In this document: piece after piece, positions 1 through 52,708 of the stretch
Position numbering within the stretch: position 1 is the stretch's first letter
How the letters are laid out: each line of letters starts with the position of its first letter
From: Candidatus Saccharimonadota bacterium
GTDB taxonomy: Bacteria > Patescibacteriota > Saccharimonadia > Saccharimonadales > Saccharimonadaceae
Reading direction: 5' to 3'
NCBI GenBank assembly: GCA_017406565.1
Contig: JAFQYG010000003.1
Location: 65,431-129,430, forward strand
DNA length: 64,000 nucleotides
The notes under the pieces: generated by a model
The model's database searches: none
What the model saw: the letters and a program-made list of their open reading frames with translations, nothing else
Told to the model about the DNA's origin: nothing
Translations under genes and position numbers: made by a program

Positions 1-261
1 CAACCATCTTACACGGGCACTCCAGAAGGCTCAGGTGTATCTAATACTCTAAGATCCTATCCTAATAATTTTGTCTATTCTGGGTACATGTTTAGTTCGT
101 CGGTCGGTAGCCGTGGTTCCACCAGTGATTTTTGGTCTACTTCTGCAGTTGATAAATCAGGCGCTTACAGCATGTTTATCACCAGACAAACCGTCTATCC
201 AGGCAATAGCAGCAATAGTAAATATAGCGGGAGAGAAGTACGTTGCGTTGCTGGTGTGTAG
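1..261 (+). CDS. 3' end (5'-partial) of a FISUMP-domain surface protein, paralog of 29054..30850; not in ORF track
   Basis: Frame 1 is open from base 1 to TAG at 259-261: QPSYTGTPEGSGVSNTLRSYPNNFVYSGY...FWSTS...YPG...KYSGREVRCVAGV*. Its last 67 codons are colinear with the C-terminus of the 598-aa ORF (LRAYPNNFVYSGY...YWSAS...KSFGRTARCLAGV*). Confidence 0.9.
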   Translation, partial: QPSYTGTPEGSGVSNTLRSYPNNFVYSGYMFSSSVGSRGSTSDFWSTSAVDKSGAYSMFITRQTVYPGNSSNSKYSGREVRCVAGV

Positions 262-311
262 CCTAGCATCATATAATATCAGTATCCTTTTTTCCAATTC
301 TTAAGTCCAAA

Positions 312-343
312 ATATAATGTATAGTAGCTACTATACATTATAT
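312..343. repeat. 32-bp perfect palindrome (bidirectional terminator or cruciform)
   Basis: ATATAATGTATAGTAG|CTACTATACATTATAT, between the converging FISUMP gene and uvrB. Confidence 0.85.
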
Positions 344-392
344 CTAGCGCCCCATATCTAGAATATTGTCGAACACTTCCCGAACAAAAGTG

Positions 393-2495
393 TTATTTCT
401 TCTCCCCCATAAATTCTTTAATTCGTTCTATTTCGTCTCTTAGAGCTGCTGCTTTTTCGAACTCCAAATTCGCTGCAGCTAGCTGCATCTCGGAAGATAA
501 TTGCTTAATTAGTGCTGGTAATTCATCTTTCGGGATTCGTTTCACATCTAATTGATCAGTCTTTTCTTTTTCTGGGATAATCGCCCGAAGTCCCTTAGAA
601 ATTTCTTTTTGTACTGAATGTGGTTTAATTCCGTGCTTTTCATTGTATTCTTTCTGAATCTCGCGGCGCCGATTGGTCTCTGAAATCGCTTTTTCCATAC
701 TTTCAGTAATATAATCAGCATACATAATAACTTTTCCTTCTTCATGCCGTGCTGCGCGCCCAATCGTTTGAATTAATGCTGATTCAGACCGTAGAAACCC
801 TTCCTTGTCCGCGTCAAGAATTGCTACTAAAGAAACTTCAGGCAAATCCAATCCTTCACGTAGTAGGTTAATTCCCACTAACACATCATAAACTCCTTCA
901 CGCAAATCACGTAAGATGTCACCACGCTCCAAAGTGTCAATATCGGAATGAATATACGCAGTTTTTACGCCACGTTCCTTTAAATGGTCAGATAAATCCT
1001 CCGCCATCCGTTTGGTCAAAGTCGTAATTAATGTCCTCTGCCCTTTAGCGATTCGGCGGTCTATTTCTTCCATTAAATTATCAATCTGACCTTCCGAACC
1101 ACGTACTTCTACTTCAGGATCAAGCAATCCAGTCGGACGAATTACCTGTTCTGCTGGCGCAGGTGATACCTCAAGCTCATATTCTCCCGGAGTTGCTGAT
1201 ACATAAATCGCTTGATTGATATGTTTTTGGAATTCGCCATAAGTCAAAGGGCGGTTATCTAGTGCAGACGGCAAACGAAAACCATGTTCAACCAGTGACA
1301 TTTTTCTGGCGTGGTCGCCATTGTACATTCCGCGTACCTGTGGCAAAGTCATATGCGATTCATCGACAATCAAAAGCCAATCTTTCGGGAAGAAATCAAG
1401 CAAAGTCGCCGGTGGTTCTCCCGCTCGGCGCCCATCTAAATGTCGAGAATAGTTTTCGATTCCCTTCACGAAGCCTGTCTCTTTTAACATTTCCAAGTCA
1501 TATTTAGTGCGCTGACTTAACCTCTGTGCTTCCAAGTATTTTTGATGCTTTTCGAAATATTTCAATCTTTCTTCGAATTCTGCCCTAATTGTCACCAAAG
1601 CTTTTTCTAATTGATCCATCGGCGTCGCATAGTGAGTATTTGGAAAAATATGTATATGATCAGGTTTTTCTCGAATTTCAAAAGTCAGCGGGTCCACGAT
1701 TTTCACCTCTTCCAAAGTGTCAAATCCAAATTCAAATCGATAGGCATATTCTCCGTTGGCTGGATATAAATCAATCGTATCACCCATCACTCGAAAATTA
1801 CCTCGTTCAAATGCCAAATCGTTGCGGTGGTATTGCATTGCCACTAGACGGTGGATGAATTCGAGTTGTGTCAATTTGGGATTTGAAATCGAGAGGTTCG
1901 AGGGGCTTCCGGAGGTTACGACCGAGGGTGAGGGCGCTTCGCCCGTGACGACGGTCCGAAGCGACCCGTCCCCGAGAACTTCCTGATTCAAATCCCAACC
2001 CTGTTCAGTTCGCCACATCGGTAACGACATCTCAGTATAATGGTCTGGCGAACCAATGCCGTAAATACAAGATACGGATGCAATTACGATGCAATCGCGT
2101 CGCGTGAGTAATGCTTCGGTTGCACCGTGTCTCAACCTATCAATCTCGTCATTAATCGCCGAGTCCTTTTCGATATATGTGTCAGTTGAGGCGATATAGG
2201 CCTCTGGCTGGTAATAATCAAAATATGAAACAAAATAGTGTACTTCGTTTTCTGGGAAGAATTCTCTGAACTCTGAATATAGCTGCGCAGCTAGAGTTTT
2301 GTTGTGTGCAAGCACTAGTGTAGGTCGCTGAGTCTTCTCGATAATATTAGCCATCGTGAATGTCTTACCCGAACCAGTCACACCAAGCAATGTCTGTTCG
2401 TGGACATTACGATTAATCCCATCCACGAGTTGCTTAATCGCGGATGGCTGGTCGCCAGTCGGCTGATATTTTGATACTAACTTAAATTTTGCCAT
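393..2495 (-). CDS. uvrB: Excinuclease ABC subunit B, with a ~40-aa in-frame insertion
   Basis: GVTGSGKT Walker [33 protein letters not shown] motifs. Start moved to MAKFKL (2495), which lies 7 nt after TGTTATAAT. Confidence 0.97.
1878..1996 (+). repeat. Palindromic in-frame insertion element in uvrB (type C, antisense to gene)
   Basis: Arms GGGATTTGAA / TTCAAATCCC; inner GGTTC-GA-GGGG ... CCCC-GA-GAAC; encodes [40 protein letters not shown], which is absent from canonical UvrB. Confidence 0.85.
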
Positions 2496-2571
2496 TATAT
2501 AGATTATAACATGGGTACAACAATAAGTATAAGCAACCACTTTTGATAGTTTTATACTATAATAATCATAT

Positions 2572-2790
2572 ATGGCTAAATATATAATTACCGTCAAACC
2601 AGGTTCATCTCAAGAAAAGATTGTTGAATCTACTTCGGGTGAATTAATTGTCTACCTCCGCGCTAAACCACATGATGGTGAAGCAAATACTGCTTTGATC
2701 AAGCTTCTTTCTAAGCATTTTGATATACCTAAGACATCTATCAATATTACTCGTGGTCAAAAATCTCGCGTTAAAACTATCGAATTCTAA
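2572..2790 (+). CDS. DUF167/YggU family protein
   Basis: VKPGSS...[22 protein letters not shown]...RGQKSRVK motif. Confidence 0.85.
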
Positions 2791-2808
2791 ATCACTGATT
2801 ATTTATTA

Positions 2809-4260
2809 TTAATCGTCTTTGCTCTTCATCGTTGGGAATGGCACTGCTTCACGCCCAGGTACACCTTCAAGTAGCCAGAAATTACGTTCAGAATTACCCC
2901 ATCCACATGCTGGTGGCATACCGTATTCTAGCATCTCTACGAAATCCATATCCAACATCTGAGCTTCCGCATCACCAGCATCTCGAGCCGCTTGCTGTTC
3001 TTGGAATCTTTCTAACTGATCTAACGGGTCATTAAGCTCTGAGAATCCATTTCCCATTTCAGTCCCAGCAATCACAGGATGGAACCTTTCGGTTACCAAT
3101 GGATTATCTACTGATTTCTTTGCTAGTGGTGACAAACTCAGCGGCTCTTCAATTACCCAATAAGGTCCTGCCGAAGTTTTTCGAATCAGCTTCCATACAT
3201 GATCAATTAAATGAGGTGTCGTCATATCAAAATCCGATTCGACACCGTTTTCTTTCAGAATTTTGATTAACTGTTCCCTATCTGGATTAAATACATCTAC
3301 ACCATATTTATCACGTAGTAAATCTGCATATTTATATCGTGGCCATTCACAATCCAAATCAATCTCAAAACCACCTACACTGAACTTCAGTGTGCCCCAA
3401 GTTTGCATACATACATATTTCATCATCTCTTCATAAAACTTCATTCCGTCTTCATAGTTTTCATAGGCAGCGTATGCCTCAAACGCAATATGTTCTGGTA
3501 AATGTTCATCATCTACACCTTCGTTACGGAAGCGTGGTCCAATGTCATAAACTTTTTCAAAACCACCACCAAGCAAGCGCTTCAACGGCAATTCATGCGA
3601 AATACGAAGAAAGAAATCTTCATCCAAAGCATTCATATGTGTTACGAAAGGTTCAGCATCCGCTCCACCAGTAGTATGCTCCAAAACTGGAATATTAATC
3701 TCGATAAAACCATGTTTATTCATAAAATCGCGCGTTGCTTGCCAGAATTTTGAACGCCTGACTAATCTTTCGCGGACCTCAGGATTCACATTCATATCTA
3801 CATAGCGTCGACGATAACGTTCTTCTTTATTTGTAAACTTTTCAGGTAACGGCCGGATTGATTTAGTTAACAATCGTACAAAATTACAAAATACTGAAAT
3901 CTCACCAGTTTGAGATTTATCAACCAAACCTGTCGCTTCCACAAAATCGCCGATATCCAGCAGTTTAATCTCCTTTGCCCCAAACATTCCTTCTGGGCCC
4001 GCTTCACTTACGGCCTTCATGAAAACCTGGACCTCACCAGTATAATCGCGTAACTTTAAAAACACTAGTTTACCAAATGAACGGATAGCAACAATACGGC
4101 CCACAATCGACACTTCCTGTCCTTGTTTTTCATCAAAATGATCAACAATCTCAGAAATCTTGGCTGTGCGATGGCTCTTAGCCGGATATGGGTCTATTCC
4201 GCGTGCCCTTATTTCTTCGAGTTTTCTTAATCTTTCATTTCGGTAATCTTCGAGTAACAT
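2809..4260 (-). CDS. lysS: Lysine--tRNA ligase (class II)
   Basis: OB-fold N-terminus, GGADAEPF, RISHEL, FRNEG motif 2, YGMPP motif 3. Confidence 0.97.
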   Translation of the reverse strand: MLLEDYRNERLRKLEEIRARGIDPYPAKSHRTAKISEIVDHFDEKQGQEVSIVGRIVAIRSFGKLVFLKLRDYTGEVQVFMKAVSEAGPEGMFGAKEIKLLDIGDFVEATGLVDKSQTGEISVFCNFVRLLTKSIRPLPEKFTNKEERYRRRYVDMNVNPEVRERLVRRSKFWQATRDFMNKHGFIEINIPVLEHTTGGADAEPFVTHMNALDEDFFLRISHELPLKRLLGGGFEKVYDIGPRFRNEGVDDEHLPEHIAFEAYAAYENYEDGMKFYEEMMKYVCMQTWGTLKFSVGGFEIDLDCEWPRYKYADLLRDKYGVDVFNPDREQLIKILKENGVESDFDMTTPHLIDHVWKLIRKTSAGPYWVIEEPLSLSPLAKKSVDNPLVTERFHPVIAGTEMGNGFSELNDPLDQLERFQEQQAARDAGDAEAQMLDMDFVEMLEYGMPPACGWGNSERNFWLLEGVPGREAVPFPTMKSKDD

Positions 4261-4280
4261 ATATGTACATTATAACATAA

Positions 4281-4429
4281 GATAGTAGTTTTATGAGCAT
4301 TGAACGAACCAAGTAATTTTTATTAATTTTTAGGTTTTTTGAGCGAGGGTGGTGGGTATAGTGAAAAAATCCGTAAAAAAATTATTAAAAATTACTTGAC
4401 GTGAGTGAAGCGCGAATAAAACTACTATC
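4281..4429. repeat. 149-bp nested intergenic inverted repeat between greA and lysS
   Basis: 14-bp perfect arms GATAGTAGTTTTAT (4281-4294) / ATAAAACTACTATC (4416-4429); 21-bp arms 4311-4331 / 4377-4397 with 1 mismatch; G-rich centre. Confidence 0.8.
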
Positions 4430-4434
4430 GTATG

Positions 4435-4881
4435 TTAATTGATACTAAGAATATTTATTTTTTTACCATTATGTTCAAAAGATTCATTGGCTTTATGTCC
4501 AAGTAAAGCTTTACCAATTGGCGATTCGTTTGAGATTTTGCCCTCTAATGGGTTCGCTTCTGTTGTACCAACTACAGTATAAGTAACTTTCTTACCGTTC
4601 ATATTGAGTGTAACGGTAGCACCAAGGTCAACCTTAGTTTTCTTGCCACCACGAATTACTTTAGCGTTTTTTAAGATTTCTTGGATTTCCAAAATACGGC
4701 TTTCAGCGACTTTTTGCTCGTTCCTAGCTGAACTGTATTCTTCATTTTCTGACAAATCACCAAAAGATCTCGCTATAGCAATCCGCTCAGCAATTGCGGG
4801 ACGCCCTTTAATGAGCTCATCTAGCTCCTTCTCGAGCTCTTTCTTCCCTTCTGCAGTCAAACTGATACTTTTCTTTATCAT
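4435..4881 (-). CDS. greA: Transcription elongation factor GreA
   Basis: GDLSENEEY, ISNESPIGKALLG motifs. Confidence 0.96.
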   Translation of the reverse strand: MIKKSISLTAEGKKELEKELDELIKGRPAIAERIAIARSFGDLSENEEYSSARNEQKVAESRILEIQEILKNAKVIRGGKKTKVDLGATVTLNMNGKKVTYTVVGTTEANPLEGKISNESPIGKALLGHKANESFEHNGKKINILSIN

Positions 4882-4952
4882 AAGAAATCTCCAAAATTAT
4901 CAATCTTAAGTTTACATGAAAACGCTACGCAAGTCAATACATTATTACTATT

Positions 4953-5801
4953 TTAGCTTATGCCTAAAACAAAAAGAAAATAAAATGCCAATCCGTTTTT
5001 AATCATATGCAGTAAAATCCCAGCATAAATCGTTCCAGTGAACTCGCGCATCGCGCAGGCGACTAAAGATAGAGCGAATACGTTTACTCCAACGTTCCAT
5101 TGCAAATGGACAACTCCAAATAGAACTGAGACCAATAAAGATGCAATGATCGCCGCAGTAAGTTGAGTGGTAACTCGAGAGAATTTTTCCCGCATTCTAC
5201 CATATAAATACCCCCTAAAAACTAATTCTTCTGCAATAGGTGCTATCACAACTAGTGTAATAAAAGCCAACGTCCTATCGAACCCATAAATATTCGTATT
5301 AAAAATAATATCCTGATTTTGTTCAATATTGAACCACGAGAACGCGCTAAAGATGCTAAGGAGTACTGCCCCAAGAATGAAATAAACTACTAGTCCGCCT
5401 ATCGAAAGCCCGATGTCAGTCCAAGTTACCCACCCTTCAATACCCAAGGTTCTCGGGGATACAAACTTTGTCTTTTTCCTATCCTTTGATTTTTTATCCT
5501 CTTTTTTGAAACCGCTGAGTACCAATGGTGGCAGGAACACAATCAAACAAAAAGCCAGCACATATGATAAGACCGAAAAAATTGCCGTTGGCACTGGGTT
5601 CAAAAAGTTTTCGCGTCCAACAACTAAAACCATCAAATAGCCGACAATAAACTGTGCTGCTATAAGAGAAATCAAAGCCCACAATATGAGCCCAACTGCC
5701 CAAACAACAACATTCTTAATTTGTTTCTTCTTTGCACTTAGGAGCTTCTTGTCAGCTTTTCTAGGTTTTTTGTCTGTAGCCTTCTTTTGCTTTGCCATCA
5801 C
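4953..5801 (-). CDS. CPBP (CAAX/Abi) family intramembrane metalloprotease
   Basis: APIAEELVFRG, LFGVVH, HMIKN motifs; multiple TM helices. Confidence 0.88.
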   Translation of the reverse strand: MMAKQKKATDKKPRKADKKLLSAKKKQIKNVVVWAVGLILWALISLIAAQFIVGYLMVLVVGRENFLNPVPTAIFSVLSYVLAFCLIVFLPPLVLSGFKKEDKKSKDRKKTKFVSPRTLGIEGWVTWTDIGLSIGGLVVYFILGAVLLSIFSAFSWFNIEQNQDIIFNTNIYGFDRTLAFITLVVIAPIAEELVFRGYLYGRMREKFSRVTTQLTAAIIASLLVSVLFGVVHLQWNVGVNVFALSLVACAMREFTGTIYAGILLHMIKNGLAFYFLFVLGIS

Positions 5802-7114
5802 TTTGCTATCCTAATAATATCGAGAATAGTTACAATGAAGATTAATGCTAATAACATCATCATCGCACGTGAAACGATTCTTTCTTCTATTTCTTTAGTT
5901 AGTTTCTTTTTTCGCAGTTTGTATATAGTAATAAGAAGCCATCTACCACCATCAAGCGCCGGAATAGGCAACACATTCATACAAGCTAGTGATACTGATA
6001 TTAAGGCGGTCAAAAAGGCTAAATTAGCTGGACCTGCCGAAGTAAATGCCGGGAACATTACGCCAATTATCCCTACTGGTCCAGCCACAGAATCGCCAAC
6101 CGCAGAGATCGCTTCTTGCCCATTTTGTCTCACATTGGCATCAGGACTAAACAATGAACCTACACCAGTAACTAAGTTCCAGAGCATGACACCAACCCCT
6201 TTAAATGTTTCACCTGTAATCTGTGCCGTTAAGCCAACGCCTACAATTGGTGCTGACCAAGTCGAATATGACAAAGATTGAGTCGTTGCCATTGTAACAC
6301 CGAGTAAGTATTCCGAATCAGCTGGATTTAATGTCACTAGTTGATCAAAAGTTTGTTTGCCTTCTTCGGGATGTACACAATCACACTCTGACCCTTCCGG
6401 ACATTCGCAAGAATAATTCTTACCTGCATCACGTTGAATCGTATACACTACTGTTTCGCCAGCATGGGCTTGATTATAATCACTAATATCGCTACCATGC
6501 GTGAATTCATTGCCATCAATTGCGACGATGCGATCTCCTTCAATAATTCCAGCAACAGATGCTGGGGAATTCTCCGCTACGGAGGTTATTTCTACAGGTA
6601 CTGATTCGATACGTGTATCATTAGCTATCGTAAACTGACCATCCAAAAATTCCGGCATACCAGTCCATGCTAATATCGTGAATATTATTATAGCAATTAA
6701 CCAGTTTGCTGCCACTCCGCCAAATAGTATTTTCGTTTTTGACCAATAGTTTGCATCACCAAAAGTGCCTTTCCTAGTATCGGCGTCAGATTCTCCATCC
6801 ATTTGGCAAAAGCCACCAATTGGTAGCCAATTTAAACTAAAAACCATCCCCTTTTGGGCTAAGCTTTTATCATCACCATCCGAATAAACCACCTTCGATA
6901 CTTTTTCTTTCCCCCATTCTTTGCGCGGTAGCTTTTTCCATTTTCCGGTTTTTTTGTCTTTAATCCATGCTTTGGCACGTGGCGGAAATCCAATCCCGAA
7001 TTCCAGTACATTGACGCCGTTTCGTCTAGCCATGATAAAATGACCAAACTCATGTGCCGTCACCAAAAACATTAAAACTATTAAACCTACAACAACACCT
7101 AAAAATATATCCAT
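5798..7114 (-). CDS. rseP: RseP/M50 family site-2 protease with PDZ domain
   Basis: HEFGH, NWLPIGGFC, PDZ (SPASVAGIIEGDRIVAIDG), NVLPIPALDGG motifs. Confidence 0.92.
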   Translation of the reverse strand: MDIFLGVVVGLIVLMFLVTAHEFGHFIMARRNGVNVLEFGIGFPPRAKAWIKDKKTGKWKKLPRKEWGKEKVSKVVYSDGDDKSLAQKGMVFSLNWLPIGGFCQMDGESDADTRKGTFGDANYWSKTKILFGGVAANWLIAIIIFTILAWTGMPEFLDGQFTIANDTRIESVPVEITSVAENSPASVAGIIEGDRIVAIDGNEFTHGSDISDYNQAHAGETVVYTIQRDAGKNYSCECPEGSECDCVHPEEGKQTFDQLVTLNPADSEYLLGVTMATTQSLSYSTWSAPIVGVGLTAQITGETFKGVGVMLWNLVTGVGSLFSPDANVRQNGQEAISAVGDSVAGPVGIIGVMFPAFTSAGPANLAFLTALISVSLACMNVLPIPALDGGRWLLITIYKLRKKKLTKEIEERIVSRAMMMLLALIFIVTILDIIRIAK

Positions 7115-7134
7115 AACAATAATTATATCATATA

Positions 7135-7803
7135 TTATTTGCCAAATCTACGATTGCGCTTATTGTATTCTTTTATGATAATATCTATATCTTTAGCGTC
7201 CATCTCAGGGAAGTATTTTTTAATAAACATAAATTCCGCATACGACGATCGCCATAGCATAAAACCAGATATTCTCTCTTCACCGGATGTTCTTACAACC
7301 ATATCTATATCAGGGATTTCTGGATGATATAAGTGTTTTCTGATTGTTTCAGGTGTAATTTCGCCATCAGCTTCAAGAGCGATATTTGCCGCATCAGCGA
7401 TTTCAACTTCTCCACCGTAATTAAAACAAAAACCTACCGTAATTCCATCGCAATCAGCCGTTAGTTTCTCAGCTTTTTCAATTGTGCTGATAAGCTTAGG
7501 TGAAACACGTTTTTTGGAACCAAGCACCATCAATCGTCCATTTTTAGCCTTCATTTTTTCGGCATACTTCATAATCCGCGTTTCAGCTAGTTTCATAATA
7601 TAAGAAACTTCCGCTTCGCTTCGTCCCCAGTTCTCGGTGCTAAACACATAAAAAGTAATATACTTGATGCCTGCGTCAGCTGCACCATCCACTAGTGCTT
7701 GAATAGCATCAAGCCCTTTCTTATGTCCTTCGATTGTTGGCAAGCCCTGTTCTTTCGCCCACCGTCGATTGCCATCGGCAATTATTCCGAGGTGAGTAAT
7801 CAT
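7135..7803 (-). CDS. uppS: Isoprenyl transferase / undecaprenyl diphosphate synthase
   Basis: HLGIIADGNRRWA, FSTENWGRS, RTSGEERISGF motifs. Confidence 0.95.
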   Translation of the reverse strand: MITHLGIIADGNRRWAKEQGLPTIEGHKKGLDAIQALVDGAADAGIKYITFYVFSTENWGRSEAEVSYIMKLAETRIMKYAEKMKAKNGRLMVLGSKKRVSPKLISTIEKAEKLTADCDGITVGFCFNYGGEVEIADAANIALEADGEITPETIRKHLYHPEIPDIDMVVRTSGEERISGFMLWRSSYAEFMFIKKYFPEMDAKDIDIIIKEYNKRNRRFGK

Positions 7804-8345
7804 AGCTTCATTATCTCATCAGATTTAGCTTTGAATTCCGCATCAATTTTGTCAGTGAATTCTTTAGTAAGTTCATCAATTTCTTTTTCAGCACGTTTTT
7901 TGACATCTTCACCCATTTCTTCAGCAATTTTGATTGCCTTACGAGCATCCTCACGAATATTTCGAAGTGCGACTTTAGCTTCTTCTACTTTTGCTGAAGC
8001 GGTTTTAACAATCTCCTTGCGACGTTCTTCTGTTAAGGATGGAATTGGAACACGCACTATTCGACCATCGTCAGAAGGATTTAGACCCAATGCTTGGTCG
8101 GCTCTGATAGCCGCAGCAATTGCTTGAATATTGGCTGGATCAAACGGAGTTACGACCAACAAGGTTGCATCAGCAGCAGTAATGTTCGATACTTGGTTTA
8201 ACGGCATATATTGTCCATATACTTCAACTTTAATTCCAGACAACATGTCAGGATGCGCTCGGCCAGTACGAACTTTTTTCATTTCATCCTTAAATCTTTC
8301 GACCGCTCCTTCCATTTTTTTGCGATCTTCTGATGTATCGAACAT
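7800..8345 (-). CDS. frr: Ribosome recycling factor
   Basis: RTGRAHP, NPSDDG, PSLTEERRKE, RNIR motifs. Confidence 0.96.
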   Translation of the reverse strand: MFDTSEDRKKMEGAVERFKDEMKKVRTGRAHPDMLSGIKVEVYGQYMPLNQVSNITAADATLLVVTPFDPANIQAIAAAIRADQALGLNPSDDGRIVRVPIPSLTEERRKEIVKTASAKVEEAKVALRNIREDARKAIKIAEEMGEDVKKRAEKEIDELTKEFTDKIDAEFKAKSDEIMKL

Positions 8346-8417
8346 AAAAACTCCTTTATTTATATATTTATTATACCATACAACAAAAATTCGGCCCTTT
8401 CGGACCGAACTTATCGA

Positions 8418-8759
8418 TTAGGCTTTTACTTCGTCTTCAGCTTTAGCTTTTTTCTCAGCTTCTTTTTTGACTTTTTTAGCTTTGTTACTAAGCGCAGCTT
8501 TCATCTTAGCAGCCTTAGCGGCACGAGCTTTGAAGCGATCTACACGACCTTCAGTATCGATAATCTTTTCTTCACCGGTAAAGAATGGATGAGAAGCAGA
8601 GGAAATCTGTACCTTAACGAGTGGGTATTCATTACCATCTTTCCACTTGATAGTTTCTTCACTCTTCGCTGTAGACTTAGTCAAAAACGAAAAGCCAGCC
8701 GCTTCGTCTGAAAAAACGACAAAACGATAATCTTTAGGATGTAATTCTTTTTTACTCAT
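8418..8759 (-). CDS. rpmE: 50S ribosomal protein L31 (type B) with Lys/Ala-rich tail
   Basis: [26 protein letters not shown] motifs. Confidence 0.93.
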
Positions 8760-8803
8760 AATTAGTGTTATTATATCAGAGATTGAGAAAAAAGTAAAGA
8801 AAA

Positions 8804-8825
8804 AGAGCGGACATCAGTCCGCTCT
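8804..8825 (-). terminator. Rho-independent terminator after the ClpP-like gene
   Basis: AGAGCGGAC-ATCA-GTCCGCTCT, followed by a U-tract on the minus strand. Confidence 0.8.
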
Positions 8826-8836
8826 AGCGCAGTTAT

Positions 8837-9493
8837 CTAAAATATTGTCTCAATTGATGTAACGATTTCATCTATAAAACCTCGTTCTAAAGCATCCTCA
8901 GGCAGTAAATAATATTCTACTCGAGCCAAAGCATCATATTCGGAACTGCGCATATTGCTATGTTTTAAAACATGAGCTTTGACAATTTCCTGATCGAAGC
9001 GCTTTTCGAAGTCCATTTTATCTTGAGCCTTGCTCGTAGAACCAAAGGCGAAAGTAGAACCATCATGCATCAAGAACGAGGATGCAGGCAGTGAAAAACG
9101 TCGGTGCCCAGCTATACCAATTAAGAACGCCATTGAACTCCACTGGCCAACATTAATCGTGTAAATAGGGGTTTTGCTTAGCTCAATCATTGATACTAAA
9201 GCAAATCCTTCAGTAACGCTTCCGCCCGGTGAATTAATATAGAGTCTAATCGGTTTACGCTCTTCAGACGGAATCCCCTCGTCAGCACGATTGAACTCCA
9301 GGATGTATTCTACTAAGGTAGAAGTCAACGATGCATCTGAACAGATACTGTCATCACTATCGACCGGCAGAATCTCCCCGTATAAGTAAAGACGTCTATC
9401 GTCTAATTCTTGTACGCGGCGATACTCACCAATATCGCAATTTACATGCAACGCGATCTTCTCAAGAAGCGAATCAATATTTTTGCTAGACAT
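8837..9493 (-). CDS. clpP: ClpP-family protease (divergent)
   Basis: LYINSPGGSV, catalytic Ser region GQWSSMAF, His in FLMHDG. Confidence 0.82.
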   Translation of the reverse strand: MSSKNIDSLLEKIALHVNCDIGEYRRVQELDDRRLYLYGEILPVDSDDSICSDASLTSTLVEYILEFNRADEGIPSEERKPIRLYINSPGGSVTEGFALVSMIELSKTPIYTINVGQWSSMAFLIGIAGHRRFSLPASSFLMHDGSTFAFGSTSKAQDKMDFEKRFDQEIVKAHVLKHSNMRSSEYDALARVEYYLLPEDALERGFIDEIVTSIETIF

Positions 9494-9627
9494 ATTTCCA
9501 CCCCCCTTCGTTTATTAAAGTACGAACATAGATAACTGTTGACGACTATTTTACGAAATTTTGTATTCTTTCACAAGCACAAGAGTATTACTTAGAAATC
9601 TACACTTTACTTTTTTTAAAAAAATGC

Positions 9628-9728
9628 TATAATGAAACTATTATTAATTTAACGAAACAGTTTTTGGGAGATTTCCTGGCATAGCTTATGCCTATCATAC
9701 CCAAGAACAAAGAGAAAGGAAATCATAT
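9628..9728 (+). promoter_or_regulatory. rpsB promoter (TGCTATAAT) and structured 5' leader
   Basis: -10 at 9628-9633; stem TTTTGGG...CCCAAGAA enclosing hairpin GGCATA-GCT-TATGCC; SD GAAAGGA. Confidence 0.55.
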
Positions 9729-10415
9729 ATGGCAGTAGATGTCGATATGAAAGCATTGCTGGAAGCAGGTGCTCATTTTGGGCACAAAACCAGTCGATGG
9801 CACCCTAAGATGGCGCCATACATCCATAGTAAGCGTCAAGGCGCACACATTATTAACCTTGAAAAGACTGTCGAAAGTCTAGAAAAAGCTTTACCAAAAG
9901 CTACCGAGATAGTCAAAAACGGCAAGAAAATTCTTTTCGTTGGCACTAAAAAACAAATGAAAGATATCGTTAAAGCAGCTGCTGAGTCAGTTGATATGCC
10001 TTACGTTACCGTGCGTTGGGTTGGTGGCACTTTAACCAATGTCGAAACCGTTAATCGTCAAATCAAAAAACTTAAAGATTTGGAGCGTCGCATGGCTTCA
10101 GGTGAATTAGAAAATCGCTACTCTAAGCTTGAAGTTCAAAGATTCCAAGAAGAGATTGATTTACTCAACGAACGCTATGGCGGCATTAAAGAGATGACCG
10201 ACCAACCATCTGCAATTATTGTCGTAGATGCTATTGAAGACAAGAACGCTATCAAAGAAGCAAACGTACTGCATATTCCAGTATTTGCAATTACTGATTC
10301 CAATGTTGATCCTTCAGACATCGATTACGTAATTCCAATGAACGACGATTCTATCAAAGCCACTAAATTGGTGCTCGATTATTTCGTTGAAGCAATCAAA
10401 GAAGGTAAAAAATAA
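9729..10415 (+). CDS. rpsB: 30S ribosomal protein S2
   Basis: LLEAGAHFGH, WHPKM, RWVGGTLTN motifs. Confidence 0.98.
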   Translation: MAVDVDMKALLEAGAHFGHKTSRWHPKMAPYIHSKRQGAHIINLEKTVESLEKALPKATEIVKNGKKILFVGTKKQMKDIVKAAAESVDMPYVTVRWVGGTLTNVETVNRQIKKLKDLERRMASGELENRYSKLEVQRFQEEIDLLNERYGGIKEMTDQPSAIIVVDAIEDKNAIKEANVLHIPVFAITDSNVDPSDIDYVIPMNDDSIKATKLVLDYFVEAIKEGKK

Positions 10416-10427
10416 TTAGGAGGCAAA

Positions 10428-11021
10428 ATGGCAAAAGAAATTACAATTGAATCAATTAAAAAACTCAAAGAACTTTCTGGCGCAGGCTTGACTGATGCTA
10501 AAAAAGCTCTCGTAGAAGCTAAAGGTGATTTTGATAAAGCACTCGAAGCTATGCGTAAAAAAGGCTTAACTAAAGCTGAAAAACGTGGCGATCGCGAAAC
10601 TCGCGAAGGTTTAATCGAAGCCTACGTCCACGATGGTCGTCTTGGCGCCATCGTTGAAGTTAACTGTGAAACAAGTTTTGTCGCTAAAACTGAAGAATTT
10701 AAAACTTTAGCTCACCAAATCGCTATGCAAATTGCCTCTATGAACCCACTTTATGTCAGTGAAGAGGATATTCCAGCAGCCGATAAAGAAGCTAAGATCA
10801 AAGAACTCGAATCTAACTTCAAAGGCCCTGAGAATATGAAGGACAAAATCCTTGAAGGCCAAGTCAAAAAAGCCTTCTCGGATAAAGTTTTAATGAATCA
10901 ACCTTATATCTTGGATGATTCCAAGACTGTCGAACAATTCATTAAGGAAGCTATCGCCAAAACCGGCGAAAACATCACTATCCGCCAATTTAAGCGTATA
11001 GAGCTTGGTGTTACTGAATAA
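10428..11021 (+). CDS. tsf: Elongation factor Ts (short form)
   Basis: IKKLKELSGAGLTDAKKAL, EVNCETSFVAK motifs; follows rpsB. Confidence 0.97.
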   Translation: MAKEITIESIKKLKELSGAGLTDAKKALVEAKGDFDKALEAMRKKGLTKAEKRGDRETREGLIEAYVHDGRLGAIVEVNCETSFVAKTEEFKTLAHQIAMQIASMNPLYVSEEDIPAADKEAKIKELESNFKGPENMKDKILEGQVKKAFSDKVLMNQPYILDDSKTVEQFIKEAIAKTGENITIRQFKRIELGVTE

Positions 11022-11028
11022 AAATGCT

Positions 11029-11193
11029 CTGATTTGTTTCAACGAAACAAATCAGTAATAAACAAAAAATAAGTTGGAATTTACTTCCAACTTATTTTTC
11101 TTACTGGCCTTTTCTGCTGGACTCTTTTTCCTCCGGAAAAGAGTTCAAACTATAAAATTCGGGCACCCTCGCAGTAATATCGGTGCCCGAATT
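11029..11193. repeat. Cluster of four unrelated hairpins in a convergent intergenic region
   Basis: Stems at 11029-11055 (12 bp), 11065-11099 (15 bp, A/T tails), 11121-11144 (~10 bp), 11156-11193 (12 bp). Confidence 0.8.
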
Positions 11194-11227
11194 CTTCTGT
11201 GTAAAGTATAATGTTATCTATAAATGC

Positions 11228-12175
11228 TTAGCGTCGTTTCGATGATTTCTGGTTTCTTTTTACGATAAATATTGCTCCTCCAATTCCCGCTGTAAAGAAT
11301 ATCAACAATCCCGTAATTAAATAATCAGTCTTTGAGATATTCAAACCTCCAAACAATCCACCAGTGTCAGGTGCTCCCGCATCATCACCTCCACCTGTGT
11401 CAGGAACAACGGGTTCCTCACCACCAGCAGAATATTCATAGTTAATAATATATGATCTATATAATTCATCGCCATCAGCATTCAGTGCTATCAATTCAAT
11501 TACGTAATTTCCATCTGGTAGTCCATTTTCAGAAAATGGTAAAGTTACTTGATCTGTATCTTTGTTTACGGCTATCGGCGAAATTTCATCTATCAAATTA
11601 CCATTTTCATCATATACATTAATTATAATCGTCTCTACTCCATTTGGATCAACCCCATCTCCAGGTACAAAATCCAAATCTACCACCGGGTCATTTGTTT
11701 CCGCTGCTGGTTCTGCTGTACCTCTTACTGGTATATATTCAAATACTATAGTTTCTTCGTCATAAACTCCATCCGGCCCATACCCAGTCACAGTTATCTC
11801 ATAATCACCGTACCCATACTGAATCAAATTCAAATCAATCGGAAGGCCACCGGGTTGATAGTCGTAATAATCATCCCACAAGTTAATTTCCTGTACATTG
11901 CCGTCTTTATCTGTGTACTTCAATACTACTTTTAGTTCATCTACTACTTCATATGTTATATCAATGGTTTGCCCACCATCCGTTATTATGCTACCGGATT
12001 CTATTCCGGTCACCTCCACATTGGGGGCTCGTCCAACCACCCTCACTGTGACCGTATCGGTCACACTCCCTGCTGCTGAAGCTTCAGGTCCTGGCAAACA
12101 AGCAGCAAAAGCCGTCGTAGCTACCACTAAGGACAGCCCAAACAGCCCCAAGAGTTTCTTTTGCGTTCTTTTCAT
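11228..12175 (-). CDS. Secreted Ig-like protein with PDTG motifs and a C-terminal TM plus basic tail
   Basis: Signal peptide, acidic beta-rich body, VPDTGG/APDTGG, TM, then KRNQKSSKRR (sortase-substrate-like layout). Confidence 0.7.
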   Translation of the reverse strand: MKRTQKKLLGLFGLSLVVATTAFAACLPGPEASAAGSVTDTVTVRVVGRAPNVEVTGIESGSIITDGGQTIDITYEVVDELKVVLKYTDKDGNVQEINLWDDYYDYQPGGLPIDLNLIQYGYGDYEITVTGYGPDGVYDEETIVFEYIPVRGTAEPAAETNDPVVDLDFVPGDGVDPNGVETIIINVYDENGNLIDEISPIAVNKDTDQVTLPFSENGLPDGNYVIELIALNADGDELYRSYIINYEYSAGGEEPVVPDTGGGDDAGAPDTGGLFGGLNISKTDYLITGLLIFFTAGIGGAIFIVKRNQKSSKRR

Positions 12176-12253
12176 ACTCTACACTCTCTTTTATATTTTA
12201 TTTTTATTTTGGTATTGTAAGAGCAGTCTACTCGCAATAGACTTACCACCAAT

Positions 12254-13261
12254 CTATACAGCCATCTTAGATTGGCGTACCTTACGCCTCCTAATAAACA
12301 TTATAAGCATAACTACAATAAATGTCAATAGCAAAATTGAAATAATTATTAATGGGAGTGGATTAACAAAAACAATTTTTTCGATTGTTTGGGTTTCATC
12401 TGCTGCGGTTACCGTCCAGCTCACATGATAAATACCAAAACTTGGAGAATCTTCCCATTCGTCATAAACGGATAGTTCAGATTCAGGAATTACAGACACT
12501 CTTCCTCTGTCATCTGGCGTCTCGTAGTTGCTAAAACCGATAATCGAATCTACTTTTAGTTTACCAGCAGCATTAAAATCAATATTACCAACATTTTTGA
12601 CTTTAGCGGACGCATAAAAGTCGCTTTTTACGGTTCCATTCTGATCGAAGCTTTTATCTATTTTTAAATCATTTATTTCAGCCTTAGTAATCGCCTCTCC
12701 TTCAATTGACCGACCAAATAAAACCAACCCTGGGCTGGCTTCAGTTTTAATGCCATTAGACGCAATCGTACCAGTCAATGTATGCGCAAATATCACTGCA
12801 TATTGACCACCAGCAGGAATATTATCTGGAGTAACTATTCTATATTCAATTTCTAAAGAATCTTTTGCTTTTATGTTATAAGTTGGACGGTCTTTTGTCC
12901 AATTGCCACCAGCATCCTTGAAAGAGACCCATCTAGAAATCTGGGTGAAGTTATTTTCTTTCGAAAAACCAAGCTTGTAAGAGTCCTCTTCTTCTGAATA
13001 AATGTATGAATATGGTGCAGCATAAACTTCAATCTCCATATTCGAATCACCTTCGTTTTTAACTTCGAACTTATTATTGTAAGTTGAATTCGAAGAAAGC
13101 TGCAAGACATTGCTCACTGGCGAAAGACTAATACTAGTGCCACCAACCGCTCCAGCAGACTCTGGTTCTTCTTCGGCAAAAGATGGATTTTCTAAACAAA
13201 AAACCACGCCGAGCCCAACCATCAGCGCGAGAGTTATAATTCTGCATAATATCTTCTTCAC
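12254..13261 (-). CDS. Secreted protein with C-terminal TM, DUF916/WxL-interacting-protein-like
   Basis: Signal peptide, ISLSP...FEVKNEGD..., VKNVGNIDF, C-terminal TM + RRRK; family call is by resemblance only. Confidence 0.55.
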   Translation of the reverse strand: MKKILCRIITLALMVGLGVVFCLENPSFAEEEPESAGAVGGTSISLSPVSNVLQLSSNSTYNNKFEVKNEGDSNMEIEVYAAPYSYIYSEEEDSYKLGFSKENNFTQISRWVSFKDAGGNWTKDRPTYNIKAKDSLEIEYRIVTPDNIPAGGQYAVIFAHTLTGTIASNGIKTEASPGLVLFGRSIEGEAITKAEINDLKIDKSFDQNGTVKSDFYASAKVKNVGNIDFNAAGKLKVDSIIGFSNYETPDDRGRVSVIPESELSVYDEWEDSPSFGIYHVSWTVTAADETQTIEKIVFVNPLPLIIISILLLTFIVVMLIMFIRRRKVRQSKMAV

Positions 13262-28948: not shown

Positions 28949-29053
28949 ATTTTGATTATACCAAATCCAAAACAAATTATGCTAAAATCGTAATCCGCTA
29001 AATTTGGAAAAGACTCTGTAAAGGATGGTTGCTAGGAATGAAGAATGCTATGA

Positions 29054-30850
29054 CTATACGCCAGCGAGGCAACGCGCCGTTCTCCCAAAGCTTTTGTTAG
29101 AGTAATTTGTGCCTGGATTAACGCTATCTATAGAAAAGTATAAATAGTAGGAGCTAAAAGTATTCCCACCAGAAGCGGACCAATAAGTACTATAGTAATT
29201 ACGGGTGTATATCGACGAATTACCCGCATACCCAGAATAGACAAAGTTATTAGGATAGGCTCTCAGGATATTAGATACTGTGGCACCTTCATCACCTGTG
29301 TAATATGGTGTACTGGAGCTGTCATAGTTGGCAGGATCGACCCCATTGTTTATGCCTGTGACAATGAGTTGCCAAAATTCATTAGTAGATTCTTGAGATT
29401 TATTGCCGCCTTTCGGTAGATGCCAACCTGCCGGACAAATATCACCTGGAGCAGTATAATTGGAGCCATCACCATCACCATATTTGCCATGGCCGCCTGT
29501 TATAGAATACCAGTTGTAATAGTTGCCATAGCTATAGACGTTACTAGATGTACTATAGTTAGAGCTAGTATTATTAGTGAAGAGCGTAGTATTATTGGTA
29601 GCTAGCATGGACTGGTCATAACAGTTGGCCGAAAGACTACTACACCAGCCAGCAGTAGCTGGGTCCGTAGTGCGTGAGAGATGATTTGAAGTTGGCTTAG
29701 TATCACTATCATTGTCTGCACTAAACCACCATGAATTAGTGAGAGGGAGAGATGGATTGTGAGTGTTATCAGATGAAAGAATTGGTGAATCATTTAATCT
29801 CAAGTTTTCAATCATCCAACATTTACCATCTGCTAATTTAGCGACAGCATAAGTATTACCGTCTCTTTCATCCGTAAGAGCAGTAGTTGTTCCTTGCACT
29901 AGTGAACTACATCCATTCCAGTCCTGAAGTGAACCAGTAGATTTAATCCAGACTGCATAGAGACTTAACCCATTGGTTTGTACGTCTGCTGGAGCTATGA
30001 TAGTTTCATTAGGCCCATAAATATTAGCATTTGGATTAGTCTCATAATCATATTTTTCAGACCAACCAGCAAAACCGTAGCCTTGTTTTTTAAGGTTAGA
30101 AGCATAGAGAGTGGCAGATGCATTATTGTATGCAGATTGAGTTCCCATCTGCCCTTCAACTATAGCAGTATTAGGATTATAGCAAATCTTGCCTGCAGCG
30201 CATGCGATTTCATGCGGCACAAACTCATTAGCCGGATGCACCATAGTATATTTAACTTTACCTGCATAGTTACCAGCTCTTTGTGTTTTAGATACGAAAG
30301 CAGCATAAGTAGTTTGGTATGTAGAGCCAGTAGCATTATTCCCAGCATCAGTAGTAGAATTATAATGAGCTACTTTAGTATATTCATTTGGAACAGCATG
30401 ATAGTTGCCAAAGCTATTATCTATCGTACCAACAAAATTAGATCCACTTGTAGATATCTTCATCGCCCAGTTAGAAGTATTGCCACTTGTAGCTGTACCA
30501 GTATTTATACTACTTGATGGTCCTACTAACTTAGCACTATTAGTTCCACCAATCTTATTTCCAGTATAACCAACTGCATAAATAGCATAGCCTTGACTAT
30601 CATTACATATTACATTAATGGTAGTAGTACCAATATCAGCTTGATAAGTACCATTAGGTATAGTAGCAGTATGTGGTGTAGTGATAGTAGAGTTCATAGT
30701 ACAAGCTTCTTCTACATTTACTGTAGCTTGAGCTAAAGTAGATACTGCATCTACTTTAATTGAGTTTAAAAGAGCTCCAGTGATAATAGTTACTGAAGTC
30801 AAAATACTAACTCCTAGAACATTCTTACTACACAATATATGATTCCCCAT
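29054..30850 (-). CDS. Secreted surface protein: shared N-terminal domain + InlB-B-like repeat + FISUMP (Fib_succ_major) domain
   Basis: Signal peptide; LTDERDGNTY...GKCWMIENL, YGNYYNW, ICPAGWHLP, YWSAS, RCL motifs. Confidence 0.88.
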   Translation of the reverse strand: MGNHILCSKNVLGVSILTSVTIITGALLNSIKVDAVSTLAQATVNVEEACTMNSTITTPHTATIPNGTYQADIGTTTINVICNDSQGYAIYAVGYTGNKIGGTNSAKLVGPSSSINTGTATSGNTSNWAMKISTSGSNFVGTIDNSFGNYHAVPNEYTKVAHYNSTTDAGNNATGSTYQTTYAAFVSKTQRAGNYAGKVKYTMVHPANEFVPHEIACAAGKICYNPNTAIVEGQMGTQSAYNNASATLYASNLKKQGYGFAGWSEKYDYETNPNANIYGPNETIIAPADVQTNGLSLYAVWIKSTGSLQDWNGCSSLVQGTTTALTDERDGNTYAVAKLADGKCWMIENLRLNDSPILSSDNTHNPSLPLTNSWWFSADNDSDTKPTSNHLSRTTDPATAGWCSSLSANCYDQSMLATNNTTLFTNNTSSNYSTSSNVYSYGNYYNWYSITGGHGKYGDGDGSNYTAPGDICPAGWHLPKGGNKSQESTNEFWQLIVTGINNGVDPANYDSSSTPYYTGDEGATVSNILRAYPNNFVYSGYAGNSSIYTRNYYSTYWSASGGNTFSSYYLYFSIDSVNPGTNYSNKSFGRTARCLAGV

Positions 30851-35070: not shown

Positions 35071-35565
35071 TTAAGCATCTCTTTTTGCAAGGACAGCTGA
35101 TGCAAGATAAGTAGTCAAACATCCAGCAATCAAAGCAATCGGCAAGGCATCTTCTGGACCAGTAGTTGGCATTGGATTGTCTGCCTTAGCTACAGTACTT
35201 TCAGTTTTGTTTGAATTATTCGAACTGTTGGAATTATTATTTTTGTTCGAATCATTCGACAAAGTACCTACTGAATTTGAATTTTCCTTTTCGGAATTCT
35301 TATTAGAATCCTTTTCGGAATCCTTATTACTAGATTCTTTGTTCTCTGACTTAGACTTATCGTCGTTACCAGATTGGCTATTAGAATCAACAGCAGTTTG
35401 CGAAGTTTGCTCAGAATTATTGTTGCTGATATTCGTCCTGCTACTCTTCTTAGTTGCAACAACGATAATTGCTACTACCAAAATCAAAATGATAATCGCA
35501 GTAATAGTCGAAACCGCAATAATCCTACGACGCTCCTTCTTCTCTTTATCTCCCTGATAATACAT
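35071..35565 (-). CDS. Small membrane protein with Ser/Asn-rich linker and LPxTG-like MPTTG + TM
   Basis: N-terminal TM, low-complexity linker, MPTTGP then hydrophobic tail and KR. Confidence 0.7.
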   Translation of the reverse strand: MYYQGDKEKKERRRIIAVSTITAIIILILVVAIIVVATKKSSRTNISNNNSEQTSQTAVDSNSQSGNDDKSKSENKESSNKDSEKDSNKNSEKENSNSVGTLSNDSNKNNNSNSSNNSNKTESTVAKADNPMPTTGPEDALPIALIAGCLTTYLASAVLAKRDA

Positions 35566-50617: not shown

Positions 50618-52708
50618 ATGATAACCATAAGGAGGTTACGATTCGCTACAAAGCGATTATCGTTCCCAGCAGTTTATTTATTTGTTTTTACCCTTTGTTT
50701 TTTATTCTCTCCTTCCACTTCTGCTATTTCAAGCACGATAACTCTAACTGTTGCGAATAATATTTCGCTAAACATTGTAGCCACTCAAAGTGGTGCGTTT
50801 TCTAGTACCGACACTTCGACGCCTAACGTCAGTATTACCACCAATCATGCTACCGGGTATACATTAGGCATTCTTGCAAGTGTTAATGATAATTCATTAG
50901 TTAACACAAGCGATAATACTAAAACAATTCCATCAATTTCAAACCAAATCTCACCGACGGATTATGCTAATGATTCAACTTTAAACAATACTTATGGCTA
51001 TATGCCAAGCAAGTATCATTCTAGCGACAACCTCAACTATTTGCCAACTCCAACTGACACTACGTCATTTGATATTCTAGATTCTACTTCTTCAGCAAAT
51101 TCTAGTACAGCCAATGATTATAATATTGCTATTGGTGCCAGAGTAGACGACACTATAACCCCAGGCTCATACACTAATACTTTTATTATCAGCGCTATCG
51201 CGAATCCTACGACATACAGCATTACATATAATCAAAACACTACTGACACTGTCACCAATATGCCAACAAATGTCAGCGATGATTCGACTTACGATGAAAC
51301 AGTTACATTGTCTGATACTGTCCCTGCTCGTAGCGGTCTTAATTTTGGCGGATGGTGTACAGTACAAGTTGCTGATGACGGAGCATGCACAGGAACAACA
51401 TATAATCCAAACGGCACAGGAACAGATTTAAACTGGCAACTTGATCAGACCGCCAGTAGCAACGTATTGACTCTCTATGCTATGTGGTCCACGAGCACCA
51501 GCACATGTACAAATGGCTCAACAGAACTATATTGTATGGTTGAGAGTGTTAGCAAGGGTACACAATCTGTAGACGACCTTAAAGCTGATCTCACTGCAAC
51601 GAATTCTGGAGTTTTTGAATACGACAGCAGCGTGTTTGGCCAAGCCAGCGACATCAGCAATAGTCGCAGTATTTATTATTTCCGTGGTATCCTAGATAGC
51701 AACGTGGATAGCACTACTAGCACCTATGGCTCTAGGGGCGATGGACTAGTTTGGCAAAACTATGTCAGATTAGGAAACACTTGTTGGCGTATCGTCAGAA
51801 CTACCGGTTCGGGTGGCGTAAAGATGATTTACAACGGTATATACGGTGACACTTTTGCGGGCTCATGCGCTAATGCTACCTCCAAAGCTCAGACTAGATA
51901 TAATAACGCTGAATTAAAGATAGAATATAATGTTTCCACTACTTCGAAGGCCGGTAAAACTTATACAGGTATAGGAAGCGGTATACATGCATCGGGTTAT
52001 ACATATAGCAATGTATCTGATACTTCTACTTGGTCTACTGCATACAGCAATTTATTTGGCGCTACCGGAAACGATACTACCACCAACGGTAACTCTTCGG
52101 TAATCAAAAAATACATTGACGATTGGTACACGAGTAATCTAGCTAGCTACACATCCATACTAGAAACAGGCGCAGGCTACTGTAATGACCGTACGCTAAA
52201 CACCAGCAACAACTGGACCACACCAGTAGCAGATAATACTTTGATACAACCATATAAGTCAACCGGCTCTACAGTTTATTATTTCGGCCCTTATGTACGC
52301 AATGTTTCCAATACTACTCATCCTACCCTAACTTGCAGTCGTGGTACTGTTGATACATATAGTACAACTACTAGTGATGGTGGCAATGGCCAACTGACTA
52401 ATCCAATAGCACTGCTAACTTTAGATGAAGCCGTCTTCGCTGGTTCTGGAGTTTCTGAAGTTAACGCTGGCCCGACTTATAATTTCAATAGTTTCCTACA
52501 TTCCAAAAATGGTTTTTGGTTGATGTCACCATCTCACAGAACAGGTGCACCGCAAATGTTCTATCTTGGTCCTAATGGAAAACCAGAAATGAGTACGGTT
52601 AACTATACCCCATACGGCGTGCGCCCAGTAATATCATTGGCACCAGGCACAGAATATAACAGTGGCACTGGTACGGCTACTAACCCATGGATAGTCAACG
52701 CCCCTTAA
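50618..52708 (+). CDS. Secreted surface protein: shared N-terminal domain + InlB-B repeat + C-terminal domain ending FWLMSP...GVRPVISL
   Basis: Signal peptide; ITTNHATGYTL; PARSGLNFGGWCTV; YVRLGNTCWRIVR...VKMIY. Confidence 0.8.
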   Translation: MITIRRLRFATKRLSFPAVYLFVFTLCFLFSPSTSAISSTITLTVANNISLNIVATQSGAFSSTDTSTPNVSITTNHATGYTLGILASVNDNSLVNTSDNTKTIPSISNQISPTDYANDSTLNNTYGYMPSKYHSSDNLNYLPTPTDTTSFDILDSTSSANSSTANDYNIAIGARVDDTITPGSYTNTFIISAIANPTTYSITYNQNTTDTVTNMPTNVSDDSTYDETVTLSDTVPARSGLNFGGWCTVQVADDGACTGTTYNPNGTGTDLNWQLDQTASSNVLTLYAMWSTSTSTCTNGSTELYCMVESVSKGTQSVDDLKADLTATNSGVFEYDSSVFGQASDISNSRSIYYFRGILDSNVDSTTSTYGSRGDGLVWQNYVRLGNTCWRIVRTTGSGGVKMIYNGIYGDTFAGSCANATSKAQTRYNNAELKIEYNVSTTSKAGKTYTGIGSGIHASGYTYSNVSDTSTWSTAYSNLFGATGNDTTTNGNSSVIKKYIDDWYTSNLASYTSILETGAGYCNDRTLNTSNNWTTPVADNTLIQPYKSTGSTVYYFGPYVRNVSNTTHPTLTCSRGTVDTYSTTTSDGGNGQLTNPIALLTLDEAVFAGSGVSEVNAGPTYNFNSFLHSKNGFWLMSPSHRTGAPQMFYLGPNGKPEMSTVNYTPYGVRPVISLAPGTEYNSGTGTATNPWIVNAP

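Follow-up and report, generated by a model that had tools for sequence, protein, structure and literature searches.

Our analysis of a 64,000-nucleotide stretch of a Candidatus Saccharimonadota genome (hereafter the window) suggests that the gene tail at its left edge (positions 1-261) and the tail of a 598-aa paralog inside it are a variable region born of a diversity-generating retroelement (DGR), now apparently without a template and preserved as frozen variants; we put the probability of this reading at roughly 0.6. The family to which both genes belong is a genuine DGR target in related Saccharibacteria. The DGR reading offered in the preliminary description of this DNA is therefore partly supported: the family is a target, and the two window genes were not shown to be present-day targets.

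The edge gene enters the window from the left, and the frame-1 translation of positions 1-261 yields 86 residues with the C terminus ...KYSGREVRCVAGV*. The rest of the gene was recovered on L003, a stretch of a 129,935-base ENA contig encoding the exact UvrB protein of the window. L003 shows 0 mismatches to the window across 12,495 bases (1-12495), reaches 9.6 kb farther left and contains the full 573-aa gene at L003:12235-13956. The window contig also exists as ena:ERZ27256819:k141_1158947. The paralog lies complete within the window (Table 1) and ends in ...KSFGRTARCLAGV*. Both proteins match the NCBIfam model TIGR02145 (FISUMP) over their C-terminal 170 residues, with scores of 59.2 bits for the 573-aa protein and 50.5 bits for the 598-aa protein (cut-off, 41.65), in keeping with the earlier designation of the edge as an unannotated FISUMP paralog end. 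Scores for Pfam PF09603 (Fib_succ_major) are sub-threshold (29.0 and 17.4 bits versus a gathering score of 33.9), the 598-aa protein being without a match. From its sequence, the edge gene is predicted to encode a secreted or surface FISUMP protein.

The two proteins are 55% identical overall, with about 71% identity in the middle and 42% in both the N-terminal domain and the last 66 codons. Their tails align over 67 codons without indels (window 61-261, plus strand, against 29054-29254, minus strand), and our codon-by-codon comparison reproduced exactly the counts of the preliminary description: 23 codons are identical, 6 synonymous and 38 nonsynonymous, with C or T as the third base in both copies at 26 of the 38. 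Nucleotide identity amounts to 61% (123/201), and the differences are spread as 23, 27 and 28 over codon positions 1, 2 and 3. The scaffold codons listed as fixed (TCG TCG, CGT, TGG, CCA GGC, GGG AGA, CGT TGC) are indeed common to both genes. BLASTN also detected a conserved 109-nt stretch at window positions 37-145 (E = 5.5e-15), with no third copy of it in the window.

Table 1. Features of the two window genes, their flanks and the neighboring paralog (positions refer to the window unless a locus is named).
Feature	Position	Strand	Description
Edge gene, 3' end	1..261	+	Last 86 codons and stop of the 573-aa FISUMP-domain gene; remainder left of the window
Edge gene, equivalent of the DGR variable region	70..261	+	Starts TTTGTCTATTCTGG (NFVYSG); placed by comparison with homologous template/variable pairs in related genomes
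Edge gene, hypervariable core	85..228	+	Columns 541-588; about 20 variable codons among fixed scaffold codons
Edge gene, 3' flank	262..300	+	CCTAGCA at 262-268, TTTTCCAA at 290-297; homologous to the flank of the 598-aa paralog
AT-rich perfect palindrome	312..343		14-bp stem with 4-nt loop; located where the FISUMP gene and uvrB converge
598-aa gene, 3' flank	29004..29036	-	Contains CCTAGCA (complement of 29030-29036) and TTTTCCAA (complement of 29004-29011)
598-aa paralog	29054..30850	-	Complete; signal/anchor segment, N-terminal domain, FISUMP domain
598-aa paralog, hypervariable core	29087..29230	-	Residues 541-588
Third paralog, 568 aa	L083:6384-8090		Starts about 60 bases past the right end of the window (about 60-1,770 bases beyond)

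A C-type lectin fold may be proposed for the C-terminal domain; this assignment rests on the grouping in the literature of Fib_succ_major/DUF1566 variable regions as CLec2 (PMC5758913). A PDB profile search of the sequences returned no match for the C-terminal domain, and an AlphaFold2 model of residues 311-598 (288 residues, 52-sequence alignment) had a mean pLDDT of 45 and was unusable.

Other predicted surface proteins are encoded in the window. Seven DUF285 repeats together with a Listeria-Bacteroides repeat occur in a 900-aa protein (30929-33631, plus strand) whose gene is divergent from the 598-aa FISUMP gene, the pair forming a small cluster of predicted surface proteins. A 696-aa N/S/T/G-rich protein with no Pfam match (50618-52708, plus strand) and an N/S/K-rich low-complexity ORF (35071-35565, minus strand) are further candidates. 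The palindrome 51 nt past the stop of the edge gene (-9.7 kcal/mol, z = -4.7; a self-match in BLASTN) is a candidate bidirectional terminator. After it, at 344-372, stands a repeated motif, ATATCTAGCG / CATATCTAG, which recurs downstream of family genes in L008, L076 and L080 and is possibly a conserved signal for termination or regulation.

Members of the family are numerous and occur only in gut Candidatus Saccharibacteria. The family comprises more than 2,751 proteins at E ≤ 1e-5, the best 120 of which are 41-100% identical to the query. All of the recovered genome loci (79/79) belong to Candidatus Saccharibacteria/Nanosyncoccus MAGs, and wherever the record title of one of them names a source, it is the ruminant gut (sheep, goat, yak, water buffalo). 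At least 14 family copies occur in a single MAG. The window proteins are at best 60% identical to the genome collection of these 79 loci, and the window genome carries at least five copies, namely, the two window genes, the paralog at the right end and at least two more on metagenome contigs. The right-end paralog has a more degenerate tail (..NLYNTSVSSRNSTGDYWSSSASNSTAAKFLRISSSSVQPSIGISLSKYTGAEVRCIAGV) and is followed by an unrelated 68-aa ORF, with no template nearby.

Variation within this family is sharply located. In an alignment of 121 members, the mean column entropy is 0.3 to 1.4 bits along most of the protein and 1.7 to 2.3 bits in the last 60 residues. There, about 20 discrete columns (541, 543, 548, 549, 553, 555, 562, 563, 565, 566, 569, 571, 573, 576, 578, 582-585, and 588) each reach about 2.8 to 3.5 bits, which bears out the hypervariable C terminus first noticed at the window edge. 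They are filled by Y/N/S/G/D/F/H/R/L/T and interleaved with nearly invariant scaffold residues.

The evidence that the family is a DGR target comes from related genomes. A motif scan of the 79 loci recovered an RT ORF with IGNLTSQLLSNIYL...YGRYVDD at most 2.5 kb from a family member in L039, L047 and L072, the L039 ORF matching RVT_1, and each of these loci contains a template repeat of the 3' end of the family gene, 214 to 235 nt long. Template and variable region differ at 22, 21 and 21 template adenines, respectively, versus 2, 2 and 1 other bases. Mismatches lying almost entirely at adenines, beside an RT, confirm at the family level the DGR-target idea of the preliminary description. The homology starts at TT(C/T)(G/C)T(T/C)TA(T/C)TCCGGC (..FVYSG) and reaches 17 to 45 nt beyond the stop codon, and the cognate templates, which share the stop codon and these downstream bases with their targets, are 89 to 91% identical to them. 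Read as codons, the templates give NVNxxSVNNRGSNGNYWS..NNNAYNLNLNS.NVNPGTNNNNKYNGR, and their Asn codons (AAC/AAT) coincide with the hypervariable columns of the family. Just 3' of the end of the homology, the L039 and L047 targets carry a hairpin of -15 to -19 kcal/mol (z = -3.9 to -5.3), as does a similar gene in L040, for which no template was seen. In L039, L047 and L072, only the template-adjacent copy matches the template cleanly; other paralogs sampled in the L072 genome mismatch it at 44 to 53% of A sites and at about 10 to 21% of non-A sites. In this family, diverged copies without a template are therefore typical.

In the usual DGR layout, template and RT share a strand, with the template upstream. 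In the present loci (L039:12187-13592, L047:12404-13876, and L072:13192-14617), the template is instead found on the other strand, at the RT gene 3' end, and the two are convergent; in L039 they overlap by 26 nt. An ORF of 259 to 339 aa lies directly upstream of each RT (L039:13589-14395, minus; L047:13886-14665, minus; L072:12176-13195, plus) and may encode an accessory protein; two of these ORFs have no Pfam or NCBIfam match, that of L072 has an N-terminal HTH_3, and no Avd-like match was seen. Most contigs with related Saccharibacteria DGR RTs (P0127-P0245) are only 1.4 to 4 kb long, and assemblies seem to break routinely at template/variable repeats. DGRs are therefore probably underrepresented in the MAGs of this group.

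The hypervariable columns also carry a codon footprint. Four-fold codons end in C or T at 87.6% in these columns versus 68.6% in the upstream 300 codons (p = 1e-19), figures that include the three template-adjacent copies; the third base is C in 58% and T in 29% of cases, compared with 25% and 44% upstream. Of the residues in these columns, 95.5% are among the 15 that can be reached from AAY. With the three template-adjacent copies excluded, serine is encoded by AGC at 55% in the hypervariable columns versus 15% upstream (p = 4e-46). Each window gene has NNY codons at 18 of the 20 variable columns and AAY-reachable residues at 20 of 20, and the footprint in the two window genes taken alone is weak (p = 0.04 and 0.07). 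For the family as a whole, these codons point to sequence that would derive, historically, from AAY mutagenesis by a DGR. The AAY-template pattern originally proposed from the two tails holds in a further respect: template AAY codons sit on the columns where the window copies differ, with differences at 19 of the 20 template-Asn columns versus 19 of the 41 others (p = 2e-4).

The two window copies are themselves far apart. The tail (42%) has no more third-position differences than the rest of the gene (47-60%), and the copies are therefore old duplicates, with 46% synonymous change among conserved codons outside the tail. The scaffold codons of the tail have 6/28 synonymous differences versus 97/213 in the rest of the gene (p = 0.015), a low silent divergence consistent with a reset from related templates once the two genes had separated. 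Of the differences between the copies, half of the replacements and 28 at third positions fall outside template-adenine positions. The window copies are therefore not two outputs of one template, and the preliminary description was correct in warning that a single template cannot explain the third-position C/T differences.

A related strain, present in runs X6 and X8 and differing from the window by about 2% in the flanks, gives a view of more recent change. In the variable region of the edge gene, we counted 18 base differences in 14 codons, all 14 replacements and none silent. Codon positions 1 and 2 account for 16 of the 18, an A is involved in one allele in 15, 12 are transitions, and 8 of the 14 changed codons stand at hypervariable columns. 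Divergence of the edge gene between strains is 9 to 10% in the variable region versus 2% in the flanks (p = 0.0015 and 0.0002) and includes multi-base codon changes (GAT>TCA, AAT>GTT, and AAA>AGG). With 14 replacements and no silent change, the edge gene was therefore diversified recently in this lineage, by a DGR or by strong selection, and its differences look like recent targeted diversification, against a long-frozen copy. The 3' part of the variable region of the 598-aa gene (29054-29139), read in X6, has two differences, both synonymous; where visible, this gene is not recently diversified between strains. In the low-depth runs X5-X7, contigs break at the core boundaries; we rejected this as a sign of heterogeneity, since at 3-4x, breaks occur throughout and contigs are about 300 nt long.

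Could these patterns have arisen with no DGR ever, through ordinary diversifying selection on the ligand-binding loops of old lectin-like paralogs? We consider this unlikely, although much of the above agrees with it: the paralogs are old (42-60% third-position differences, besides their synonymous change), half of their replacements lie off the template-Asn columns, and the differences between strains are rich in transitions. No template was found for the window genes. The whole protein is rich in N/S/T/Y, and binding sites rich in Tyr, Ser, Asn and Gly can arise by selection. However, the shift to AGC and to C-ending four-fold codons would be hard to obtain through amino acid selection alone, and genuine templates in relatives place AAY exactly on the variable columns. 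The unusual conservation of the tail scaffold codons at silent sites and the multi-base codon changes between strains only 2% apart also argue against it.

A cognate template with adenine-only mismatches, as the relatives have, was found for neither window gene. The window was already described as having no RT and no template, and this was confirmed and extended to 9.6 kb on its left and 8 kb on its right: no plausible ORF in these approximately 82 kb contains an RT motif, and neither the window nor its 17.6 kb of flanks contains an AAY-rich template-like stretch. We also searched X1-X4, four runs of one gut-metagenome study in which the window genome is present at about 25x, 42x, 253x, and 49x. 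No second contig appeared at ≥80% likeness on either core or on either 3' end with its flank. Each core, 3' end and flank is covered solely by the contig of its own gene, without differences, as read from assembled Logan contigs, in which rare variants would be missed. Since cognate templates are 89 to 91% identical to their targets and share their 3' end, a template for either window gene should have appeared in these runs. The suggestion that the window genes are present-day targets is therefore not upheld over the 82 kb and the X1-X4 contigs.

The window genome may nonetheless carry a DGR. A 2,232-nt contig in X1-X4, aligned on L072:13885-14015, encodes an RT (..GIVIGNLTSQ..YGRYVDD..), the reconstructed part of which (191 nt) reads KSLFYQPRAFGIVIGNLTSQ..YGRYVDD..PEDELEILL. 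Its depths of 46.7, 80.1, 505.9, and 89.4 are 1.84 to 2.0 times that of the window genome in every run, whereas other RT-like and template-like contigs do not covary with the genome; it is because this contig tracks the depth of the genome that we consider a resident DGR. The approximately 1.9-fold depth could reflect two copies, a two-copy element or a tightly linked partner. None of 120 RT relatives contains the 63-aa reconstructed peptide (the best is about 82% identical), and a search with this peptide returned short unrelated fragments only. A 30-mer scan of viral and JGI metagenome contigs was uninformative for the RT, as the 3' end of the edge gene, used as a control, was also unmatched.

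This RT contig speaks for the view that a DGR located elsewhere in the genome still rewrites both genes, or the edge gene at least, in trans, as remote targets. The purely nonsynonymous change of the edge-gene variable region between strains would agree with such rewriting, and for some DGRs such targets have been documented (Wu et al. 2018, PMC5758913). We hold this to be improbable, somewhat more so than selection, because runs of 24-250x show solely the genes' own contigs at ≥80% likeness on cores and 3' ends, because the 598-aa gene has only silent strain differences in the visible part of its variable region, and because run X7, from another study and with a related strain, contains no RT-like contig, at a depth of only 3-4x. 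In addition, both window genes lack the hairpin element of true targets: fold analysis found no such post-target element after either of them, the 3' flank of the 598-aa gene having no significant hairpin (-3 kcal/mol, z = 0.13) and that of the edge gene only the AT-rich palindrome.

The flank motifs pointed out in the preliminary description, CCTAGCA and then TTTTCCAA, are present after both stop codons in the same order and with a spacing of 25 to 28 nt. We examined them as a DGR recognition element and rejected them, since true targets have the reversed order (TTCCAG, then CCCTAGGAA, then the hairpin). They are also rare in the family, where CCTAGCA and TTTTCCAA occur in 5/82 and 9/82 members, respectively. 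This is ordinary flank homology between paralogs.

Gene conversion among paralogs, which would make the C termini mosaics of variable segments shuffled between fixed anchors, could draw on the five or more family copies of the window genome, on the conserved 26- to 50-nt anchors flanking the core and on several unitigs that end exactly at the anchor/core boundary, but it is highly improbable because a paralog donor would have imported silent differences (paralogs differ at 40-50% of silent sites), of which the edge gene has none between strains, and because no paralog in X1-X4 is ≥80% alike across either core.

Invariance across assemblies might be taken as evidence against a DGR, and we rejected it as such. 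The exact 598-aa protein is found on 37 contigs and the 573-aa protein on 42, and clusters at 90% show no C-terminal variants. The cognate L039 target, our positive control, behaves alike (two cluster members on eight contigs, with identical variable regions), and the invariance of the window proteins is therefore given little weight.

We thus return to the reading of the two tails as DGR-born and since frozen. It would start from a family copy that adjoins an RT and an AAC/AAT-rich template, as in the related genomes. Error-prone copying of the template adenines would rewrite about 20 ligand-contacting codons, and the adenine-poor scaffold codons would stay fixed. The window copies would descend from sequence diversified in this way, would have no matching template now and would have drifted since by ordinary mutation, which may account for the many third-position and scaffold differences between them. 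We infer the writing of the window copies themselves by a DGR, the time at which it would have stopped and the binding of ligands on the cell surface.

A more specific version of these events can be put forward only tentatively, and we doubt it more than we believe it. One copy would be kept at the DGR and rewritten, and useful variants would be duplicated away and fixed as paralogs, forming an archive; on this view, the edge gene would have left or lost its template recently, and its strain-level replacements would fit such a recent departure or loss. If true, this duplication and freezing would equip epibionts that have reduced genomes with an inherited set of DGR-designed binding proteins. 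More broadly, most family copies per genome are template-less and yet bear the codon scar of adenine mutagenesis, and if they are archived DGR products, they show how short-lived hypermutation can give rise to a lasting multigene repertoire in tiny genomes dependent on host attachment. For annotation, a DGR-like variable end alone does not imply an active target.

Several known systems bear comparison with the one described here. In Treponema denticola, a single DGR serves the several remote paralogous targets of the TvpA family, and these paralogs match one template with A-to-N differences only. The Saccharibacteria family is likewise a paralogous surface-protein family with putative lectin-fold variable C termini. 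Unlike the TvpA paralogs, its members show mismatches at 10 to 25% of non-A sites or above, and the window copies have no matching template.

DUF1566/DUF823/Fib_succ_major variable regions ("CLec2") make up 14% of DGRs (Wu et al. 2018, PMC5758913). As in such category "d"/CLec2 targets, for example, Legionella LdtA (PMC5758913), the variable region lies at the C terminus, in a FISUMP/DUF1566-type domain of a predicted secreted protein, and template-AAY variable codons are set in a scaffold (..YWSS..A..L.F....V.PG....K..G..VRC). A cognate template, an RT and adenine-only mismatches complete the likeness to the LdtA type, but in relatives of the window genome. Unlike CLec2 targets, the window copies have no detectable template and differ from each other at many non-adenine positions, and in their family, genomes hold many copies without a template.

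DGRs of CPR bacteria generally have a single target (Wu et al. 2018, PMC5758913), and a DGR clade restricted to Patescibacteria (clade 2) was described by Roux et al. 2021 (PMC8144416). Like these CPR/Patescibacteria DGRs (PMC8144416, PMC5758913), those of the Candidatus Saccharibacteria relatives are cell encoded, and only the adjacent copy is clean in L039, L047 and L072. The host here is a ruminant-gut Saccharibacteria lineage, unlike aquatic CPR, and the opposite-strand position of the template at the RT gene 3' end, seen in all three loci, may be another difference. The mechanism itself is not new, as DGRs in CPR and FISUMP/DUF1566-type targets have already been described; what is useful is the link between a large paralog family of gut-Saccharibacteria surface proteins and DGR-written variable tips.
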